Below, one piece after another: positions 2,146 through 20,633 of a DNA stretch of 23,312 bases. Both the position numbers and the translations under genes were made by a program. Numbering within the stretch: the stretch's first letter is position 1; each line of letters opens with the position of its first letter. Source of the DNA: a virus (taxonomy: Duplodnaviria > Heunggongvirae > Uroviricota > Caudoviricetes). The DNA lies in IMG/VR virus record IMGVR_UViG_2617270991_000003. One strand, written 5' to 3'. The notes beneath the pieces are model-generated. The model was not told the origin of the DNA. It did not search any database and saw only the letters and a list, made by a program, of their open reading frames with translations.

Positions 2146-2337
2146 TTAAAGACCTGCCGGGATTTCGTTATTATCCTGGTGAATAACTTTATCGACCGGG
2201 TAACAGTTACCGGGAATTTTCTGTTCCGCTGCGGCAGCCATGCATTCTTTCATTGAGTTGTACATGCCGGTGATTGCATCAAGCGACTCACCAGTATTGA
2301 GATATACAGTCAGAATGAGTATGAATAATGTGTTCAT
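2146..2337 (-). CDS. Small protein with hydrophobic N-terminus (63 aa), YdfD-like by size and position (putative lysis/membrane peptide)
   Basis: ATG at 2337 with GGAGAG RBS 5 nt upstream (track ORF starts at an in-frame GTG at 2343); MNTLFILILTVYL hydrophobic segment; lies directly downstream of the dicB-like gene as ydfD does in Qin. Confidence 0.5.
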   Translation of the reverse strand: MNTLFILILTVYLNTGESLDAITGMYNSMKECMAAAAEQKIPGNCYPVDKVIHQDNNEIPAGL

Positions 2338-2522
2338 CGCCACTCTCCGAAAATACCGAGTTTAAGAAGGGCAATTCTGGAGAGTATGGAATTGTCATTC
2401 AGCAGGTAGGGTTCATATTTTCTCATATTGATTGCATCCTCGGTGAAATCCCTGTTACTGAGCAGAACACCAATATTAAAGCACCCGTCAGACGTATTAA
2501 CGTTTGGTAGTGACGTTTCCAT
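2334..2522 (-). CDS. dicB: DicB-like cell-division inhibitor (62 aa)
   Basis: N-terminus METSLPNVNTSDGCFNIGV..SN..FTEDAIN.RK matches my recollection of Qin DicB (MKTLLPNVNTSEGCFEIGV...FTEDAINKRK); AGGA RBS 7-8 nt upstream; 4-nt overlap with the downstream gene. Confidence 0.7.
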   Translation of the reverse strand: METSLPNVNTSDGCFNIGVLLSNRDFTEDAINMRKYEPYLLNDNSILSRIALLKLGIFGEWR

Positions 2523-2532
2523 TATCGCGTCC

Positions 2533-3090
2533 TCAACAATGAATTTTTAGCAATTGCTCCACAGTCATATTTTTAATTGCGCTCCGGTTTACAAGAGTCC
2601 ATCCTTGTTTCTCCAGATAAAACCGGAAGGTATCCAGGGTGCAGACCATTGCGCCGTCAGGAACGGTTTCAGTGAATTTGATATTGCCGTGTTCGTCGAG
2701 ACGGATAACCAGGGTGCGTCCGTCCCCGTGAATCATTTTGTCGGGAGACGGGGCGTTATTCTGGCGCAGTTCTTCCTCCATGCGATCGAACTCAGCGATG
2801 TAGGCTTCTTTGAAAGTTGCGGCTTTTTTACCTGTGAACCCCATCACCAGGAAAACGAAGCCGTTTTTGGTGATTTGGTACATGGGGCGTTTTTCGCCTT
2901 TGGCGTCGGTGTAGGTAACGGGCGTAAAATTGCGCTCGTTAAAATCTTCAGAGCATTCTAGCGTTTCAATTTTGCGCAGAACGTCCTTGTGCATTTTGCG
3001 GAAGAACTCTGCAACCGCAACAGACGTAGTGACAGCGCGACCATTTTCGATGGTTACGTCAGGGTGAGAAAGGGTAGGGATAGTAGCCAT
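2533..3090 (-). CDS. rha: Rha-family phage regulatory protein (185 aa)
   Basis: MATIPTLSHPDVTIENGRAVTTSVAVAEFFRKMHKDVLRKI...KNGFVFLVMGFTGKKAATFKEAYIAEFDRME fits the Rha domain pattern; ATG at 3090 with AGAGG RBS. The track ORF extends in frame to 3387 but that extension contains an intrinsic terminator. Confidence 0.7.
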   Translation of the reverse strand: MATIPTLSHPDVTIENGRAVTTSVAVAEFFRKMHKDVLRKIETLECSEDFNERNFTPVTYTDAKGEKRPMYQITKNGFVFLVMGFTGKKAATFKEAYIAEFDRMEEELRQNNAPSPDKMIHGDGRTLVIRLDEHGNIKFTETVPDGAMVCTLDTFRFYLEKQGWTLVNRSAIKNMTVEQLLKIHC

Positions 3091-3257
3091 AATGGCAGCC
3101 TCTTGGTTGAGTATTAATAACTCACCACCAAGGTTTTCCACGACCATAAGGGTGGTGAGGCGTACAGGGGTGGAAATACCGGTCAACCAAGAATCCGGCC
3201 AGCCTTGCAGCTGCCCTGCACGCCCCACCATAATCTGAATGTGGCTGTGCTTGACGC

Positions 3258-3282
3258 ATAAAAAAACCGCCTGAGCGCGGTT
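3258..3282 (-). terminator. Rho-independent terminator (leftward transcription) just upstream of rha
   Basis: Minus strand reads AACCGCGCTCAGGCGG followed by TTTTTTTA: short GC stem (CCGC/GCGG) plus a 7-nt U-run. Confidence 0.5.
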
Positions 3283-3564
3283 ATGCGCTTGATTGAATTC
3301 CGGGTTTCCACGCCCGGCACCCGTTTTATGAGGTGCAGGAGCACTATAATTCCACCCGTTCTGGTTTTCAATAGCTACATTCAACATTTTCTCTTACCTT
3401 TCATCACCGAAGTGAACTTTGTTGATGCGGTGCCTGGTGCCTCCAGGTGACGTTAACCAGTTAACAATTAACGCCGGATACAGAGAATCCACCCATAACA
3501 CTGTTTTTGGTTTTAACTGTTCCGCGTGCGCTTAGCCGCATTCACCGCATCACAAAATTCACTT

Positions 3565-3622
3565 TAAAAAGGGTGGCAGAGCAGTCACGGAGTAGAACTG
3601 ATGCCACCAAAGACTACACATG
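3565..3622 (-). ncRNA. dicF: DicF-like small RNA (3' hairpin and terminator conserved)
   Basis: Minus strand TTTGGTGGCATCAGTTCTACTCCGTGACTGCTCTGCCACCCTTTTT closely matches my recollection of E. coli DicF 3' two-thirds (..TTTGGCGGTATCAGTTTTACTCCGTGACTGCTCTGCCGCCCTTTTT), with compensatory GGCGG/GCCGCC to GGTGG/GCCACC changes preserving the stem; sits between ydfC-like and dicB-like genes as in Qin. Confidence 0.6.
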
Positions 3623-3944
3623 GGTATTGTGGCGGGGCTGTCACTTAAGCGTATGGTCAACCTGACAACCCGGTGCATTTTCTGGAGCAATGGAGGAAAC
3701 CCCAGCCATACTTACCGCCGCGCCATTTCGCGGAGTGCCACAACCGGAAGCGCACGGTCGAACTAAATTTAACGACACCGTACAGAGAGACCAATTTCGC
3801 CGTGCGCTTTCGCGTTATGCCCTGACTTTTCAGGGACATATCCTTTCAGTAAACTGTCAGTGCCGGATGTTCACCCGTGTCCGGCGCACGCACTCCACCT
3901 GACCCGTGGAGAACTCCTTAATTACCAACCCTCAGGAGGGTGAA

Positions 3945-4223
3945 ATGGATAAAAAGCAAATTGAGGCCCTGCAATCTATTATTGAAAAACAAGATGAAGC
4001 TATCAGGATTCTTTCATATCGCACTGATATGATACTAAATATGCTTTCTGCATTAACGGCTGCGCTTGGTGGTACAAAAACAAACGTATACCGCGAAGTT
4101 GTTATTCAACAGATAGATAAATTTGAAAAAACCATACCAGGTATTAATGCTCATCTTGCAGAACAAGAGAAAGACCATGCTCTTATGGCAATTTCTTCAG
4201 TAGCTCTCCCGAAAGTTGAGTAG
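3945..4223 (+). CDS. Hypothetical protein (92 aa), convergent with and overlapping the 3' end of the 133-aa minus-strand gene
   Basis: ATG at 3945 preceded by AGGAGG with 6-nt spacer; clean ORF MDKKQIEALQSIIEKQDEAIRIL...; AT-rich codon usage unlike neighbours; no recognisable domain. Confidence 0.5.
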   Translation: MDKKQIEALQSIIEKQDEAIRILSYRTDMILNMLSALTAALGGTKTNVYREVVIQQIDKFEKTIPGINAHLAEQEKDHALMAISSVALPKVE

Positions 4224-4584
4224 TTTTAATTGTTGTTTTGAAATAATCACTGCTTTCACATTTGAGTGATTTCATGGCAATCCAAATGCGGGCCTCTGTG
4301 CCTGCATTTGGTTCCAGTTGCTGTAGACGTTTTGCGTCTTCCAAAAGTAAGGCGATAATGTGTTTCAGCTTCTCATCATTTGCTTGATTCTTGTTTTCAG
4401 GCGAATTCTGTCCGCCGAATAGGCGCTTCTCTTCATACAGACCTATAAAGGCACGACGCACGTTACCGGATATAGTATCGATGGTTTCCTTTTCTACAGT
4501 ACTCAGGTCAAGAGTCGCCAGTTGAGAGCGAACCACATTCGCTGCCATTTCCTGGAATGGCATTGGTAAATCTTTAAATTCCAT
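4183..4584 (-). CDS. Hypothetical protein (133 aa)
   Basis: Track ORF; ATG at 4584 with GAGG RBS 8 nt upstream; plausible protein MEFKDLPMPFQEMAANVVRSQLATL...; no domain recognised. Confidence 0.55.
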   Translation of the reverse strand: MEFKDLPMPFQEMAANVVRSQLATLDLSTVEKETIDTISGNVRRAFIGLYEEKRLFGGQNSPENKNQANDEKLKHIIALLLEDAKRLQQLEPNAGTEARIWIAMKSLKCESSDYFKTTIKTTQLSGELLKKLP

Positions 4585-4606: not shown

Positions 4607-4825
4607 TTAACGTGGGTATGTAACCATTCTGGCAATGCTTAATGCCGCTGCTTTTTCCAGCCTGGTGATATCCTGCTCCAGAGCGGACAGATTTTCAGCC
4701 TGCTTAGTCCTGGCTTCATTGGCCCATTTCAGATCCTGCGCTGCATTAATTTTCTGGTGCATCCACTCATAAAGTTCATCATCGGTATAGTCTGGCGCGA
4801 TGATGACGGGTTCTCGTTTCTGCAT
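4607..4825 (-). CDS. Small hypothetical protein (72 aa), YdfC-like by size and position
   Basis: Track ORF; ATG at 4825 with GAGGAA RBS 7 nt upstream. Confidence 0.55.
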   Translation of the reverse strand: MQKREPVIIAPDYTDDELYEWMHQKINAAQDLKWANEARTKQAENLSALEQDITRLEKAAALSIARMVTYPR

Positions 4826-4854: not shown

Positions 4855-4983
4855 TCAGCCGTTAGATTTTGCCGAGCTGGAAAGCGCCTGTTTAAACTCA
4901 CTGAAGCTGAGAGCTTCTTCGCCTTCGGCAAGGCCTTCGAAGTATTCTTCGTAAGCCTTTTCCATGATTGTGTCGAAATCCAT
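4855..4983 (-). CDS. Small hypothetical protein (42 aa), YdfB-like by size and position
   Basis: Hand-found ORF (below the track length cut-off): MDFDTIMEKAYEEYFEGLAEGEEALSFSEFKQALSSSAKSNG; GGTGAG 4 nt upstream; start lies 1 nt after the stop of the upstream small gene. Confidence 0.45.
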   Translation of the reverse strand: MDFDTIMEKAYEEYFEGLAEGEEALSFSEFKQALSSSAKSNG

Positions 4984-4984
4984 A

Positions 4985-5140
4985 TCACTCACCTGAGTTT
5001 CTTTCCAGCCAGCGACGGGCACCATTTTCGGTTTTAAACGTTTTGCTTTTGGTATACGTCATCGCGGTGAATGTGCCGTCCTGGTTGGGAAACACGCCGT
5101 ACACCAGAGATTCGTTGTTGCCAAGCTCGATAGTATCCAT
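4985..5140 (-). CDS. Small hypothetical protein (51 aa), YdfA-like by size and position; first gene of the leftward early operon
   Basis: Hand-found ORF: MDTIELGNNESLVYGVFPNQDGTFTAMTYTKSKTFKTENGARRWLERNSGE; GAGGT RBS 6 nt upstream of ATG at 5140. Confidence 0.5.
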   Translation of the reverse strand: MDTIELGNNESLVYGVFPNQDGTFTAMTYTKSKTFKTENGARRWLERNSGE

Positions 5141-5211: not shown

Positions 5212-5240
5212 ATATTAGTAACGCGGATATTTTAAGTCAA
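5212..5240 (-). promoter_or_regulatory. pL-like sigma70 promoter for the leftward early operon, inside an inverted repeat (candidate operator)
   Basis: Minus strand TTGACT, 17-nt spacer, TAATAT; embedded in inverted repeat TTGATAGAAATAT...ATATTTTAAGTCAA (5203-5240). Confidence 0.45.
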
Positions 5241-5336
5241 CAGTATGGCGTATGATATTTTTGATTTGGTAACTATGTAAATGTTTTTTCAAGGGAAAAA
5301 TATTAGTTATACAGCTGATTTGCAGAAGTTATGGCA

Positions 5337-5393: not shown

Positions 5394-5855
5394 CTACTGG
5401 TTACGTTTCTTTAGTGCCAGCATGTTCTCGAAGGCTTCCTCGTAGAGCTTGTTTAGTCCACGTAGCTGGTTAAGGAGTTTGGCTTTTTCTGACGCAGGTA
5501 GAATCTCGAAGAGGTTAAGTAACTCTGCCTGTTCTTCATTGACCAGCCTCCATCCTTTGCCTGAAAAGTTATCATCATAAGTATCTGATGATCTTACATA
5601 ATTCATTAAGTCTTTAAGGTCTTCTCGAATGTCCTCTGGTTTTACCTTTAACAGAGCCGCAAATTTTAGCGCAGCGTCGGTATTTACCGGTATCTTGCCG
5701 TTCAGATACTGGCTAACGGTGCCTTGAGATTCGAATCCCAACAACTCAGCCGCCAGCTCTTGAGTCAGCTTCAGCTCTTTTTTTCTTGCATTCCATGCGG
5801 CTTTTAAATTCTTGTTCGCTTCTGGAGTTGCAATCACTTCGCGTGTTTTTTTCAT
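5394..5855 (-). CDS. Prophage repressor, HTH (XRE-type) N-terminus, no LexA-like S24 peptidase domain (DicA/RacR-like, 153 aa)
   Basis: Track ORF; HTH signature LTQELAAELLGFESQGTVSQYLNG; C-terminal helical tail ..EEQAELLNLFEILPASEKAKLL.. resembles DicA C-terminus as I recall it; no Ala-Gly/Ser..Lys autocleavage motifs; divergent from a cro-like gene. Confidence 0.75.
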   Translation of the reverse strand: MKKTREVIATPEANKNLKAAWNARKKELKLTQELAAELLGFESQGTVSQYLNGKIPVNTDAALKFAALLKVKPEDIREDLKDLMNYVRSSDTYDDNFSGKGWRLVNEEQAELLNLFEILPASEKAKLLNQLRGLNKLYEEAFENMLALKKRNQ

Positions 5856-6718: not shown

Positions 6719-7759
6719 ATGGCTAACGCCTGGCTCAGATTATGGCATGACATGCCAAATGACCCTAAGTGGCGAACAATTGCCAGGGTGTCAGGGCAGC
6801 CAATTGCAACAGTGATGGCAGTGTATATCCACCTTCTGGTGAGCGCGTCACGAAATGTCACGACATGTCACGGCGTGTCACTACGTGGTCACATTGATGT
6901 CACGACGGAAGATTTAGCAAGTGCGCTTGATGTGACGGAAGAAGTAATTGATTCAATTTTACAGGCAATGCAGGGGCGGGTACTTGATGGAGATTTAATC
7001 ACCGGATGGGAAAAACGCCAGGTACTGAAAGAGGACAATGGCAACGTTTCACAAACCGCGAAATCCCCGGCAGAGCGCAAGAGAGCGCAGCGCGAGAGGG
7101 AAAAATTACGAAAACAGAATGAGGGGTGTCACGACGAGTCACGCATATGTCACGACATGTCACGACGAGTCACGACAGATAAAGATACAGATAAAGAATT
7201 AAACCCCACACATAACGCGCACGTGCGCGAGAGTGCTCCGACCAGTGAGTCGAGTGGTACGCCGTTGCAGGCAGCAGAACCTGCATCCCTGGATGGACTG
7301 AGCGAACCCATCGGGAAATTTCCGATGGTCGATGACTGGCATCCGTCGCCGGATTTTCGACGACGGGCTGCGTTGTGGGGGATGGCTTTGCCGGAGCCGG
7401 AATTTACACCTGCTGAACTTGCCGCTTTCCGGGACTACTGGGCAGCGGAGGGGAAAGTGTTTACTCAGATTCAGTGGGAGCAGAAATTCGCCCGTCACGT
7501 AAATCACGTCAGGGCGCAGGTTAAACCAGTCAGCAAGGGGGTAAACCATGCAGCAGCACCAGGTGGCACCGCATCACGGGCAGTTCAGGAAATTCGGGCA
7601 GCACGTGAGCAGTGGGAACGTGAAAACGGATTTATCAGCGACGGAAACGGTCTGGAAGCTGTGGGAACTCATGGGGGAGGTTTATTCGAACCGCTGGACC
7701 CAGAAGAACGGGGCCGCACCTTCGAAGCTCTGGATTGCACAGATTGGCGCGATGACTGA
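6719..7759 (+). CDS. Replication initiation protein (lambda O position), carrying iterons within its coding sequence
   Basis: Track ORF (ATG at 6719 after GAAGAGG; track starts at GTG 6713); two clusters of TGTCACGAC-type direct repeats inside the gene; followed by a P-like gene. Confidence 0.6.
   Translation: MANAWLRLWHDMPNDPKWRTIARVSGQPIATVMAVYIHLLVSASRNVTTCHGVSLRGHIDVTTEDLASALDVTEEVIDSILQAMQGRVLDGDLITGWEKRQVLKEDNGNVSQTAKSPAERKRAQREREKLRKQNEGCHDESRICHDMSRRVTTDKDTDKELNPTHNAHVRESAPTSESSGTPLQAAEPASLDGLSEPIGKFPMVDDWHPSPDFRRRAALWGMALPEPEFTPAELAAFRDYWAAEGKVFTQIQWEQKFARHVNHVRAQVKPVSKGVNHAAAPGGTASRAVQEIRAAREQWERENGFISDGNGLEAVGTHGGGLFEPLDPEERGRTFEALDCTDWRDD
6846..6907. repeat. Iteron cluster 1: six direct copies of about 10 bp (A/G)TGTCACGAC
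   Basis: cGTCACGAaa TGTCACGACa TGTCACGGCg TGTCACTACg TGGTCACATtga TGTCACGAC read directly. Confidence 0.55.
7125..7200. repeat. Iteron cluster 2 (five copies) followed by AT-rich AGATAAAGATACAGATAAAGAATT; candidate origin core
   Basis: GTGTCACGAC gaGTCACGCA taTGTCACGAC aTGTCACGAC gaGTCACGAC then AT-rich tract; organisation parallels lambda ori inside O. Confidence 0.55.
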
Positions 7760-12706: not shown

Positions 12707-12882
12707 TGCAGCGGGTGCTTGAGGCTATCTGTCTCAGGCATGAACACCAAAAGGCAGATAGAGAAAAGCCCCAGTTAACATTACGCGTCCGGCAAGACGC
12801 TTAACATTAATCTGAGGCCATATCTATGCTCTACACACGTAGGTTAGCCTCTTACGTGCCGAAAGGCAAGGAGAAGCAGGCT

Positions 12883-13038
12883 ATGAAGCAGCAAAAGGCG
12901 ATGCTAATCGCCCTGATCGTCATCTGTTTAACCGTCATTGTGACGGCACTGGTAACGAGGAAAGACCTCTGCGAGGTACGAATCCGAACCGGCCAGACGG
13001 AGGTCGCTGTCTTCACAGCTTACGAACCTGAGGAGTAA
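12883..13038 (+). CDS. hokD: Hok/Gef-family type I toxin (51 aa), HokD/RelF-like
   Basis: MKQQKAMLIALIVICLTVIVTALVTRKDLCEVRIRTGQTEVAVFTAYEPEE has the Hok family signature (TM helix, LTRK.LCE.R); track ORF 12826-13038 is an in-frame upstream extension (mok-like reading frame). Confidence 0.75.
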   Translation: MKQQKAMLIALIVICLTVIVTALVTRKDLCEVRIRTGQTEVAVFTAYEPEE

Positions 13039-19527: not shown

Positions 19528-19603
19528 GGCCCTTTAGCTCAGTGGTGAGAGCGAGCGACTCATAATCGCCAGGTCGCTGGTTCAAATCCAGCAAGGGCCA
19601 CCA
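19528..19603 (+). tRNA. tRNA with anticodon CAT (Met-type; in phage context probably tRNA-Ile2 read as AUA after lysidine modification)
   Basis: Hand-folded cloverleaf: acceptor GGCCCTT/AAGGGCC, D-arm GCTC..GAGC, anticodon loop CTCATAA, T-arm GCTGG-TTCAAAT-CCAGC, 3' CCA; 76 nt. Confidence 0.8.
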
Positions 19604-19610
19604 TCACATA

Positions 19611-19687
19611 CCGCCATTAGCTCATCGGGATAGAGCGCCAGCCTTCGAAGCTGGCTGCGCGGGGTTCAAGTCCCCGATGGCGGTCCA
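19611..19687 (+). tRNA. tRNA-Arg, anticodon TCG
   Basis: Hand-folded cloverleaf: acceptor CCGCCAT/ATGGCGG, D-arm GCTC..GAGC, anticodon stem CCAGC/GCTGG with loop CTTCGAA, T-arm CGGGG-TTCAAGT-CCCCG, 3' CCA; 77 nt. Confidence 0.7.
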
Positions 19688-19893: not shown

Positions 19894-20140
19894 CAGTTAC
19901 CCGTTGAAATTTTTAAATACCTCACAATTCCACAGCTTGATGATTGTCTGGCTGCCGGAGAATTTGTTAAAAATTACATCGCATGGTGAATCCCCCTCAG
20001 CGGCGGGGCATCTGGCAAAGTGTATGATCCAGAGAACATGCAAATTCAGTAGACAGGCTGAATTTACCGGGAGGCCCCTGGCACCATGCGACAGACAGAA
20101 ATTAGGCTATACTTCAGCCCCTCTCCGGAGGGGCTTTTCT
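19894..20140 (+). repeat. Structured repeat, copy 1 (about 247 bp), ending in an intrinsic terminator; candidate sRNA or processing/termination module
   Basis: Conserved blocks shared with copy 2: TTGTCTGGC, GTTTGTTAAAAA, GCATGGTGAATCCCCCT, CTGAATT(T/C)ACCGGGAGGC.CC.GGCACCATGC, AGCCCCTCTCCGGAGGGGCT; GCATGGTG and CACCATGC can pair as a long-range helix. Confidence 0.5.
20116..20140 (+). terminator. Rho-independent terminator at the end of repeat copy 1
   Basis: AGCCCCTC-TCCG-GAGGGGCT perfect 8-bp hairpin followed by TTTCT. Confidence 0.55.
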
Positions 20141-20329
20141 GTGCAGGATGTGTCACAGTTTCCTGAATTCTGAGTACTGTCCTGTTACTCAGGGTGCTAT
20201 ATTTTCTGACGTGATGAAAGTCTGCCGGAAGGCGGAACGTATCGGAAATGACCCAGTAGAGAAAACGTTGACTCAGATACCGATGCTGAGTTACCGGGAA
20301 ACCGGCATCACATGACCGCTATCCTTCCA

Positions 20330-20363: not shown

Positions 20364-20605
20364 CAGTTTTCCCGTAAAATGCCACGTTGCTCATAATTCA
20401 GGCTGGCGATTATTGTCTGGCCGGCGGGAAGTTTGTTAAAAAATTTCGCATGGTGAATCCCCCTGTGCGGAGGGGTAATCAGCGAGTAGGTATATGGGAT
20501 AATCGCGGATTCAGGTGCTGGTACTGAATTCACCGGGAGGCACCCGGCACCATGCAATGGCACATAGCGCCACTCTCCAGCCCCTCTCCGGAGGGGCTGT
20601 TTATA
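20364..20605 (+). repeat. Structured repeat, copy 2 (about 242 bp), ending in an intrinsic terminator
   Basis: Aligns with copy 1 across 5' and 3' conserved blocks, with a divergent middle segment. Confidence 0.5.
20579..20605 (+). terminator. Rho-independent terminator at the end of repeat copy 2
   Basis: AGCCCCTC-TCCG-GAGGGGCT hairpin followed by GTTTATATT. Confidence 0.5.
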
Positions 20606-20633
20606 TTGATTTTGTCAGATGTGAGTAAACTGC

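Follow-up and report, generated by a model that had tools for sequence, protein, structure and literature searches.

Does a prophage that carries a DicF-like hairpin with a different 5' end still encode DicF, and would such an RNA control the same host genes? DicF, a prophage small RNA that blocks division of E. coli cells, is a stable RNA of about 53 or 72 nt that binds Hfq; its overproduction leads to filamentation. It ties prophage induction to host cell division, to sugar metabolism and, in EHEC, to virulence, and its copy number varies by strain. It is already known how DicF acts, that many prophages carry it and that EHEC has several copies. In a stretch of Caudoviricetes DNA of 23,312 nucleotides (the whole stretch is called the window here), a first-pass annotation had placed a DicF-like sequence on the minus strand and had suggested a covariance-model search with the DicF family model. 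In an Rfam scan of the whole window with the curated thresholds, the DicF model RF00039 matches positions 3571-3622 (minus strand) with 61.1 bits (E = 2e-11), which exceeds the gathering score of 48 bits. The match spans the full model (positions 1-52 of 52), with canonical pairing throughout its 11 base pairs. In the same test, K-12 dicF reaches 76.7 bits, so that the window allele scores 15.6 bits lower. The minus strand at window positions 3566-3624 reads CCCAUGUGUAGUCUUUGGUGGCAUCAGUUCUACUCCGUGACUGCUCUGCCACCCUUUUU and the K-12 dicF reference (L002:2883-2935) reads UUUCUGGUGACGUUUGGCGGUAUCAGUUUUACUCCGUGACUGCUCUGCCGCCC; the K-12 sequence given in the annotation proved accurate where it was used when checked against K-12 dicF. 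Furthermore, the 19 nt 3' of the hairpin, which carry the 72-nt RNase III end, are the same in the window allele and in K-12.

The claimed setting in a dicB operon agrees with the RefSeq annotation and with Pfam matches to DicB, DUF1482 and DUF1391. The window is 100% identical to E. coli 266917_2, where the locus occupies 5468180-5468780 of NZ_CP026723.1 and RefSeq gives the order repressor, DUF1391, ydfB, ydfC, hypothetical, [DicF], Rha, dicB, DUF1482, exonuclease. The gene order ydfA-ydfB-ydfC-orf133-DicF-leader-dicB-ydfD parallels that of K-12 Qin and corresponds to the K-12 dicBF operon with two insertions (Table 1); the element thus lies in a dicB-type early operon of a lambdoid prophage, downstream of a DicA-like repressor. 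K-12 DicF (Qin cryptic prophage; RF00039; b1574) occupies the same place between ydfC and dicB and has the same hairpin and U-run. Its loop core, ACUCCGUGACUG, is identical, and the downstream leader and the upstream precursor hairpin are nearly identical. The window differs by an added 133-aa ORF upstream and by an 865-bp immI-like cassette between leader and dicB, and it is without the K-12 seed UUUCUGGUGACG, the RNase E site AAU|UUUC and the hairpin that presents this site. By the curated Rfam test and by its genomic context, the window element is a true member of the DicF family; it is a DicF allele not yet characterised rather than a novel kind of element. We refer to it as the short allele.

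A promoter scan found no promoter-like site on the minus strand between 3372 and 3977, and we thus rejected a separate promoter for the sRNA. The absence of a nearby promoter fits a release from the polycistronic transcript. The upstream precursor hairpin GGGUUGUCAGGUUGACCAUACGCUUAAGUGACAGCCC is predicted in the precursor folds of both K-12 and the window. It is about 81-85% identical to the annotated 'dicF-like region' of phages P1 and P7, to which no other part of the locus matches, and may serve in the processing or regulation of the precursor. Between ydfC and DicF, K-12 carries non-coding sequence alone and the window has two ORFs; the 133-aa ORF is found in some short-allele contigs (L080) and is missing from others.

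Table 1. Features of the dicF locus in the window, followed by the predicted target duplexes of DicF
Feature	Position	Strand	Basis or remark
DicA-like HTH repressor gene	5394-5855	-	
Promoter-like sites, downstream of the repressor gene, at the position of the dicB operon promoter	5212..5281	-	
ydfA/DUF1391	4985-5140	-	Pfam, RefSeq
ydfB	4855-5025 as listed	-	
ydfC	4607-4825	-	
133-aa ORF, absent from K-12	4183-4584	-	no Pfam match
Convergent 92-105-aa ORF between ydfC and DicF	3906-4223	+	no Pfam match
Upstream precursor hairpin, 37-40 nt	3633..3672	-	nearly identical to K-12
Divergent 5' segment CCCAUGUGUAGUCUUU	3609..3624	-	replaces K-12 ...UAUCAAUUUUCUGGUGACGUUU; alignments
DicF homologue, short allele	3566..3622	-	Rfam-equivalent 52 nt (3571-3622) plus U5 tail (3566-3570)
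Two-part terminator hairpin	3572..3608	-	cmscan structure line, MFE, pair counts
Loop and 3' side of stem 2, UCUACUCCGUGACUG	3582..3596	-	alignments; duplex predictions
Structured leader 3' of DicF, STnc100-like	3418..3559	-	38 bits, below gathering score 47
immI-like cassette, 865 bp, between leader and dicB	2548..3412	-	insertion boundaries from locus comparison
Cassette promoter-like site	3371..3343	-	
Cassette isrK-like RNA	3260-3336	-	69 bits
Weak c4 a1/b1 target match	3297-3349	-	
Cassette C4 antisense RNA	3148-3235	-	78 bits
Cassette ORF fusing Ash/Icd-like and Rha antirepressor domains	2533-3387	-	annotated 284 aa
dicB, 62 aa, cell-division inhibitor	2334..2522	-	Pfam DicB 111.7 bits; RefSeq
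xylR duplex	K-12 DicF nt 6-15 GGUGACGUUU with +9..+20		predicted -13.5 (K-12) vs -3.3 kcal/mol (window allele)
pykA duplex	K-12 DicF nt 26-43 with -19..+1		predicted -11.9 (K-12) vs -11.0 kcal/mol (window allele)
ftsZ duplex	K-12 DicF nt 26-53 with -28..-1		predicted -8.9 (K-12) vs -5.6 kcal/mol (window allele, loop core alone)
manX duplex	K-12 DicF nt 35-54 with +35..+53, coding region		predicted -12.9 (K-12) vs -6.0 kcal/mol (window allele)

The hairpin of the short allele consists of stem 1 (3602-3608 with 3572-3578; 7 bp) and stem 2 (3597-3600 with 3582-3585; 4 bp). From UUUGG to the final CCC, window and K-12 differ at 4 of 41 positions. C18U and G50A (K-12 numbering) are stem partners, which converts C-G to U-A (U3606-A3574 in the window) and GGCGG/CCGCC to GGUGG/CCACC. 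U21C converts a U·G pair to C-G (C3603-G3577), and U29C (window 3595) is a loop change. The predicted folding energy is -15.8 kcal/mol for the window allele vs -15.9 for K-12, with the same two-part shape, and the window allele has folding z-scores of -2.45 (57-mer) and -4.27 (46 nt of hairpin and tail). When comparing 18 distinct E. coli DicF sequences, we find that pair 18-50 is the sole pair altered on both sides. The two-sided change is present in 3/18, all in the short-allele lineage, and the K-12-type contig L093 has A50 without the partner change, that is, an uncompensated C·A. As a single lineage carries the 18-50 change, the compensatory change represents one evolutionary event. The first-pass annotation had taken the paired stem substitutions as strong evidence for selection on an RNA structure; the compensatory pair is real, but as a single event it is modest evidence. 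Furthermore, the approximately 150 nt downstream differ from K-12 at 3 positions, so that the hairpin region, with 4 differences in 38 positions, is more diverged than this downstream sequence and the sRNA body gives no sign of extra conservation.

The 5' segment had been described as different from that of K-12, and the alignments agree. The 37 nt upstream (CACCGGGUUGUCAGGUUGACCAUACGCUUAAGUGACA) are the same in the window and in K-12, which makes the divergence an island around the 5' end of DicF. Here, the window locus is 14 nt shorter than K-12 (alignment of 400 nt of each locus), and directly 5' of UUUGG it has CCCAUGUGUAGUC whereas K-12 has CCCUCUGUUAUCAAUUUUCUGGUGACG. The replacement is non-homologous and the RNase E site is gone. 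In the K-12 precursor, the extra 5' sequence is predicted to fold as a small hairpin, UGUUAUCA / AUUUUC / UGGUGACG, and the loop of this hairpin holds the RNase E cut that makes the mature 5' end. As a sequence criterion for such sites we used RN|WUU, reportedly the RNase E consensus of Chao et al. 2017, expected some 15 nt 5' of the hairpin. In K-12, a strict site coincides with the mapped 5' end (AAU|UUUC) and has P(unpaired) 1.00, whereas no strict site was found within 80 nt upstream of the hairpin of the window allele, where the nearest relaxed site is 40 nt upstream. Thus, a discrete species of roughly 55 nt is not assured for the window allele, and its mature 5' end cannot be assumed.

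Where does the replacement come from? A distant search of phage genomes gave hairpins of the Rac type, in Rac-type phages and in Shigella Stx phages (Rac-SA53, L142:1499-1553; vB_EcoS-666R9; phiSTEC1589-Stx1c; Shigella phage 75/02), which are located, as in the window, between the early-left genes and the gene of a division inhibitor. The positions of the Rac-type hairpins are L142:1499-1553, L143:1499-1554, L141:1499-1549 and L140 ~1560-1610. Their stem, GGCGGCAUCAG/CUGAUG·CCGCC, is homologous to that of the window and is followed by a U-run and an STnc100-like leader; it has 11 continuous bp with one bulged U. The U-rich loop UUUUUUCUUGAAGUUCGG differs from that of the window in having no anti-ftsZ ACUCCG, and the elements score 35-41 bits, below the gathering score. 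The 5' flank GUGUGUAGUC is common to both: in the Rac-type elements it sits directly before (U)UUGGCGGCAUCAG (alignment), and the replacement segment AUGUGUAGUC of the window agrees with it at 9/10 positions in the same register. By our own calculation, the chance of such an agreement at a fixed position is ~3e-5. C21 is also common to the window allele and the Rac-type elements. With the Rac-like flank and the shared C21, the window allele is thus a mosaic of a Rac-type 5' flank and 5' arm with a Qin-type loop and 3' arm. The loop change has a separate history: a K-12-type DicF with a UUC loop (Ecol_316, L138:2490-2541) has the same U29C and the same Rha/C4/isrK cassette as the window, but differs in its long K-12 5' end, its GGCGG/CCGCC stem and its score of 71.5 bits. 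U29C thus occurs without the 5' replacement and arose or spread independently. The partial-match signature of Ecol_316 is shared by 89 records, one of which was inspected.

To estimate the consequences for targets, we compared sRNA intervals with positions -100 to +60 of each K-12 target using ViennaRNA, scoring hybridisation energy plus the opening energies of both strands; this is a home-made score and not a validated target predictor. Plain RNAduplex without accessibility was discarded because its duplexes were over-extended: all pairs, the Rac-type control among them, came out at -27 to -49 kcal/mol. It has been reported that the 3' region of DicF pairs with ftsZ and pykA and the 5' end with xylR (PMC5069750), and manX is a further target (PMC9438474). 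As a positive control, our search recovers all four published K-12 DicF sites (xylR, pykA, ftsZ and manX).

We observed that the predicted interactions change in different ways (Table 1). The K-12 seed for xylR, 10 bp formed by GGUGACGUUU and facing xylR codons 3-7, is absent from the window allele, and the predicted duplex falls from -13.5 to -3.3 kcal/mol. This supports the earlier suggestion that the variant 5' end could shift the target range. The effects also reach the 3' part, where G50A and U29C weaken the predicted ftsZ and manX duplexes. For ftsZ, the ACUCCG:CGGAG core is retained and each of the two substitutions costs one predicted pair; the duplex weakens as an A-U pair is lost to U29C and G50A interrupts the GGCG:CGCC helix. 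For manX, the weakening comes from G50A together with a higher cost of opening the stem. Thus, substitutions that preserve the terminator erode two target duplexes. The anti-Shine-Dalgarno motif ACUCCG is present in the 11-nt loop of the window allele, where it is predicted to pair with the ribosome-binding regions of ftsZ and pykA. The 5' segment of the window has a predicted duplex of -11.2 kcal/mol with manX +20..+32; this value depends on the assumed 5' end and has no background control, and we do not count it as evidence. By these predictions, the window allele would keep pykA, lose xylR and pair more weakly with ftsZ and manX, and the genes under its control probably form a set that is narrower than that of K-12 DicF or shifted.

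Taken together, we consider it likely that the element is a prophage-borne dicF allele, encoding an sRNA that works as K-12 DicF does, with an altered 5' end and weaker pairing to ftsZ and manX. The main rival, to which we give a low though real probability, is that the element is chiefly the intrinsic terminator of the early-left operon, a counterpart of lambda tL before the host-killing gene kil/dicB, in which sRNA activity is residual or lost. A G+C-rich hairpin followed by U5, without its own promoter and between early genes, has the sequence features of an intrinsic terminator, here a predicted one (a simple terminator scan overlooked it because the loop is above the scan's 8-nt limit). 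The Rac-type loci have a hairpin and U-run at the same position upstream of kilR with another loop and their sub-threshold DicF scores. This wholly different loop indicates that it is the hairpin and not the anti-ftsZ loop that is common to the wider group. The accessibility-corrected search predicted no duplex between the Rac-type loops and the ftsZ ribosome-binding site. The window allele, furthermore, lacks the RNase E site through which K-12 DicF is released, and its double substitution keeps the stem while breaking the GGCG:CGCC helix with ftsZ and one pair with manX. A compensatory change that keeps the terminator and costs target pairing fits selection for termination rather than for regulation. 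However, the loop and the 3' side of stem 2, which pair with ftsZ and pykA, agree with K-12 at 14/15 positions (the exception is U29C at 3595) and the predicted pykA duplex is essentially unchanged. Moreover, terminator and sRNA roles coexist in K-12 DicF (PMC5069750, PMC9438474), and a terminator role is compatible with the element being an sRNA.

Could the locus instead be a dicF copy that has lost its function and is decaying in a cryptic prophage that itself degenerates, with the 5' difference as a deletion scar? In favour of this, the shortening by 14 nt falls precisely on the functional 5' end, the Rfam model scores K-12 dicF 15.6 bits higher, and the element is absent from the RefSeq annotation. 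RefSeq, however, leaves both short and K-12-type dicF unannotated outside K-12, and the replacement is no simple deletion junction, given its agreement with the Rac-type flank in the same register. The compensatory change, furthermore, preserves the stability of the hairpin. The distribution of the allele argues in the same direction. We found the short allele at full length and at least 98% identity in 208 of 5,426 complete E. coli genomes, where it is nearly invariant and, in several prophage backgrounds, is followed by an intact dicB. For comparison, the K-12-type 100-mer is present in 3,968 of these genomes at 7,043 places. Among viral contigs, about 6 of 122 DicF cores are short, and all of these have the same linked changes. 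The short allele occurs in at least three mosaic backgrounds: with the Rha cassette (L003), without it (L021, L080), and with or without orf133. Its presence in several prophage backgrounds suggests that the allele has moved between them and is maintained rather than being a one-off lesion. No short allele was seen in the INPHARED complete phage records, with three records at ≥90% identity lying outside the inspection. A scan for the core pattern in one genome per species gave Escherichia, Shigella and a few MAG contigs with K-12-type or chance matches, with no outgroup and no short allele. We therefore regard decay of the locus as improbable.

That a small protein-coding ORF rather than an RNA explains the conservation is more improbable still: ORFs of 43 aa (3559-3690, minus strand, TTG start) and 52 aa (3507-3665, plus strand) overlap the region, but the 14-nt difference from K-12 lies within both and shifts their frames, on which ground we reject a coding explanation, no RefSeq CDS is present here in E. 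coli 266917_2 or K-12, and the covariance-model match and the compensatory pair point to RNA. Both decay and protein coding are thus poorly supported.

Returning to the short allele as a variant of the sRNA gene dicF, our analysis establishes that it belongs to the family, what its structure and context are, how frequent it is and that complementarity is lost; we infer its expression, processing, Hfq dependence and actual regulation. A transcript would start at the early promoter, controlled by the repressor, of a Qin/Rac-like lambdoid prophage and extend through ydfA-ydfB-ydfC-orf133. Part of this transcript would terminate at the two-part G+C-rich hairpin with U5, as judged from K-12, while the compensatory U-A pair and the C-G pair would hold the stability of the hairpin constant. 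The released 3' fragment with its ACUCCG loop would then pair, together with Hfq, with the ribosome-binding regions of ftsZ and pykA and repress translation, as the identity of the loop suggests. With the K-12 seed and the hairpin presenting the RNase E site swapped for the Rac-shared segment, pairing to xylR would be lost and the mature 5' end would arise elsewhere or not at all. G50A and U29C would drop pairs from the extended ftsZ and manX duplexes and so weaken these interactions. The resulting regulon would be narrower, with no control of xylR and a weaker control of ftsZ and manX.

A more specific proposal, which we put forward tentatively and think somewhat unlikely as it stands, is that the short allele is a natural seed swap, in which an exchange with a Rac-type terminator replaced the 5' seed and the RNase E release site and kept the anti-ftsZ/pykA loop. 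If this were true, about 4% of E. coli genomes would carry a class of DicF whose regulon is rewired, without xylR, with weaker control of manX and ftsZ, perhaps with new targets for AUGUGUAGUC, and possibly with another mature length. It would also be a case, caught in the act, of phage terminators gaining, shuffling and losing sRNA seeds. In the literature searched we found no description of this allele class, as defined by the Rac-type 5' flank, the absent RNase E site and the predicted target shifts; a prior description is possible, with the four EHEC copies and the dicF-related sequences of 1994 lying outside the comparison.

If DicF alleles differ in seed content too, then the identity of the controlled host genes cannot be read off from a genome scored as 'DicF present'. 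Furthermore, the allele offers a natural experiment, with the same loop, another 5' end and no canonical RNase E site, that could separate the roles of the modules in toxicity and in the regulon. The practical gain is modest since the family, the mechanism and the multi-copy nature of DicF are already known. Among other sRNAs, SroC, CpxQ and SdhX are 3'UTR-derived or intra-operonic Hfq sRNAs that arise from termination and RNase E cleavage (PMC9438474). The biogenesis proposed for the short allele is the same, with early Rho-independent termination inside an operon followed by 5' processing. However, these sRNAs are unrelated in sequence and belong to core-genome genes, whereas the window allele is prophage-borne and has no identifiable 5' processing site.

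Lastly, we describe additional features of the window, starting with the leader 3' of DicF. Its counterpart in K-12 is the untranslated spacer between dicF and dicB, and the arrangement is also present in Rac-type loci. RefSeq/PGAP annotates a partial 'cell division inhibition protein DicB' pseudogene at 3418-3501 (minus strand), which aligns to the K-12 dicF-dicB spacer and not to the dicB coding sequence. This pseudogene annotation looks spurious. RefSeq omits these DicF copies and also mislabels the adjoining leader as a DicB pseudogene. An STnc100-like leader is located after every DicF or DicF-like hairpin examined (window, K-12, Rac-SA53, 666R9, the STEC1589 Stx1c phage and Shigella 75/02) and before dicB or kilR, with scores of 31-44 bits vs the gathering score of 47.

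Two tandem full-score STnc100 copies are present in the late region of the same prophage, at 19951-20144 and 20420-20608 on the plus strand (138 and 132 bits). Rather than an independent sRNA, STnc100 may represent a leader that recurs in phages and acts in cis. Directly upstream of the tandem copies we found tRNA-Met(CAT) and tRNA-Arg(TCG) (19528-19687, plus strand); Stx phages carry tRNAs and toxin genes at that position of the late region.

The immI-like cassette is absent from K-12 and from the short-allele contigs L021 and L080, and it is present in L003 and L138. Its annotated ORF crosses both RNA genes, and the N-terminal third of the 284 aa may thus be mis-called. Furthermore, the window contains a hok/sok-type toxin-antitoxin module at 12713-13038 (plus strand), in which the sok RNA model matches 12713-12888 with 117 bits and a Hok-like ORF (MKQQKAMLIALIVICLTVIVTALVTRKDLCEVRIRTGQTEVAVFTAYEPEE) lies inside 12826-13038.
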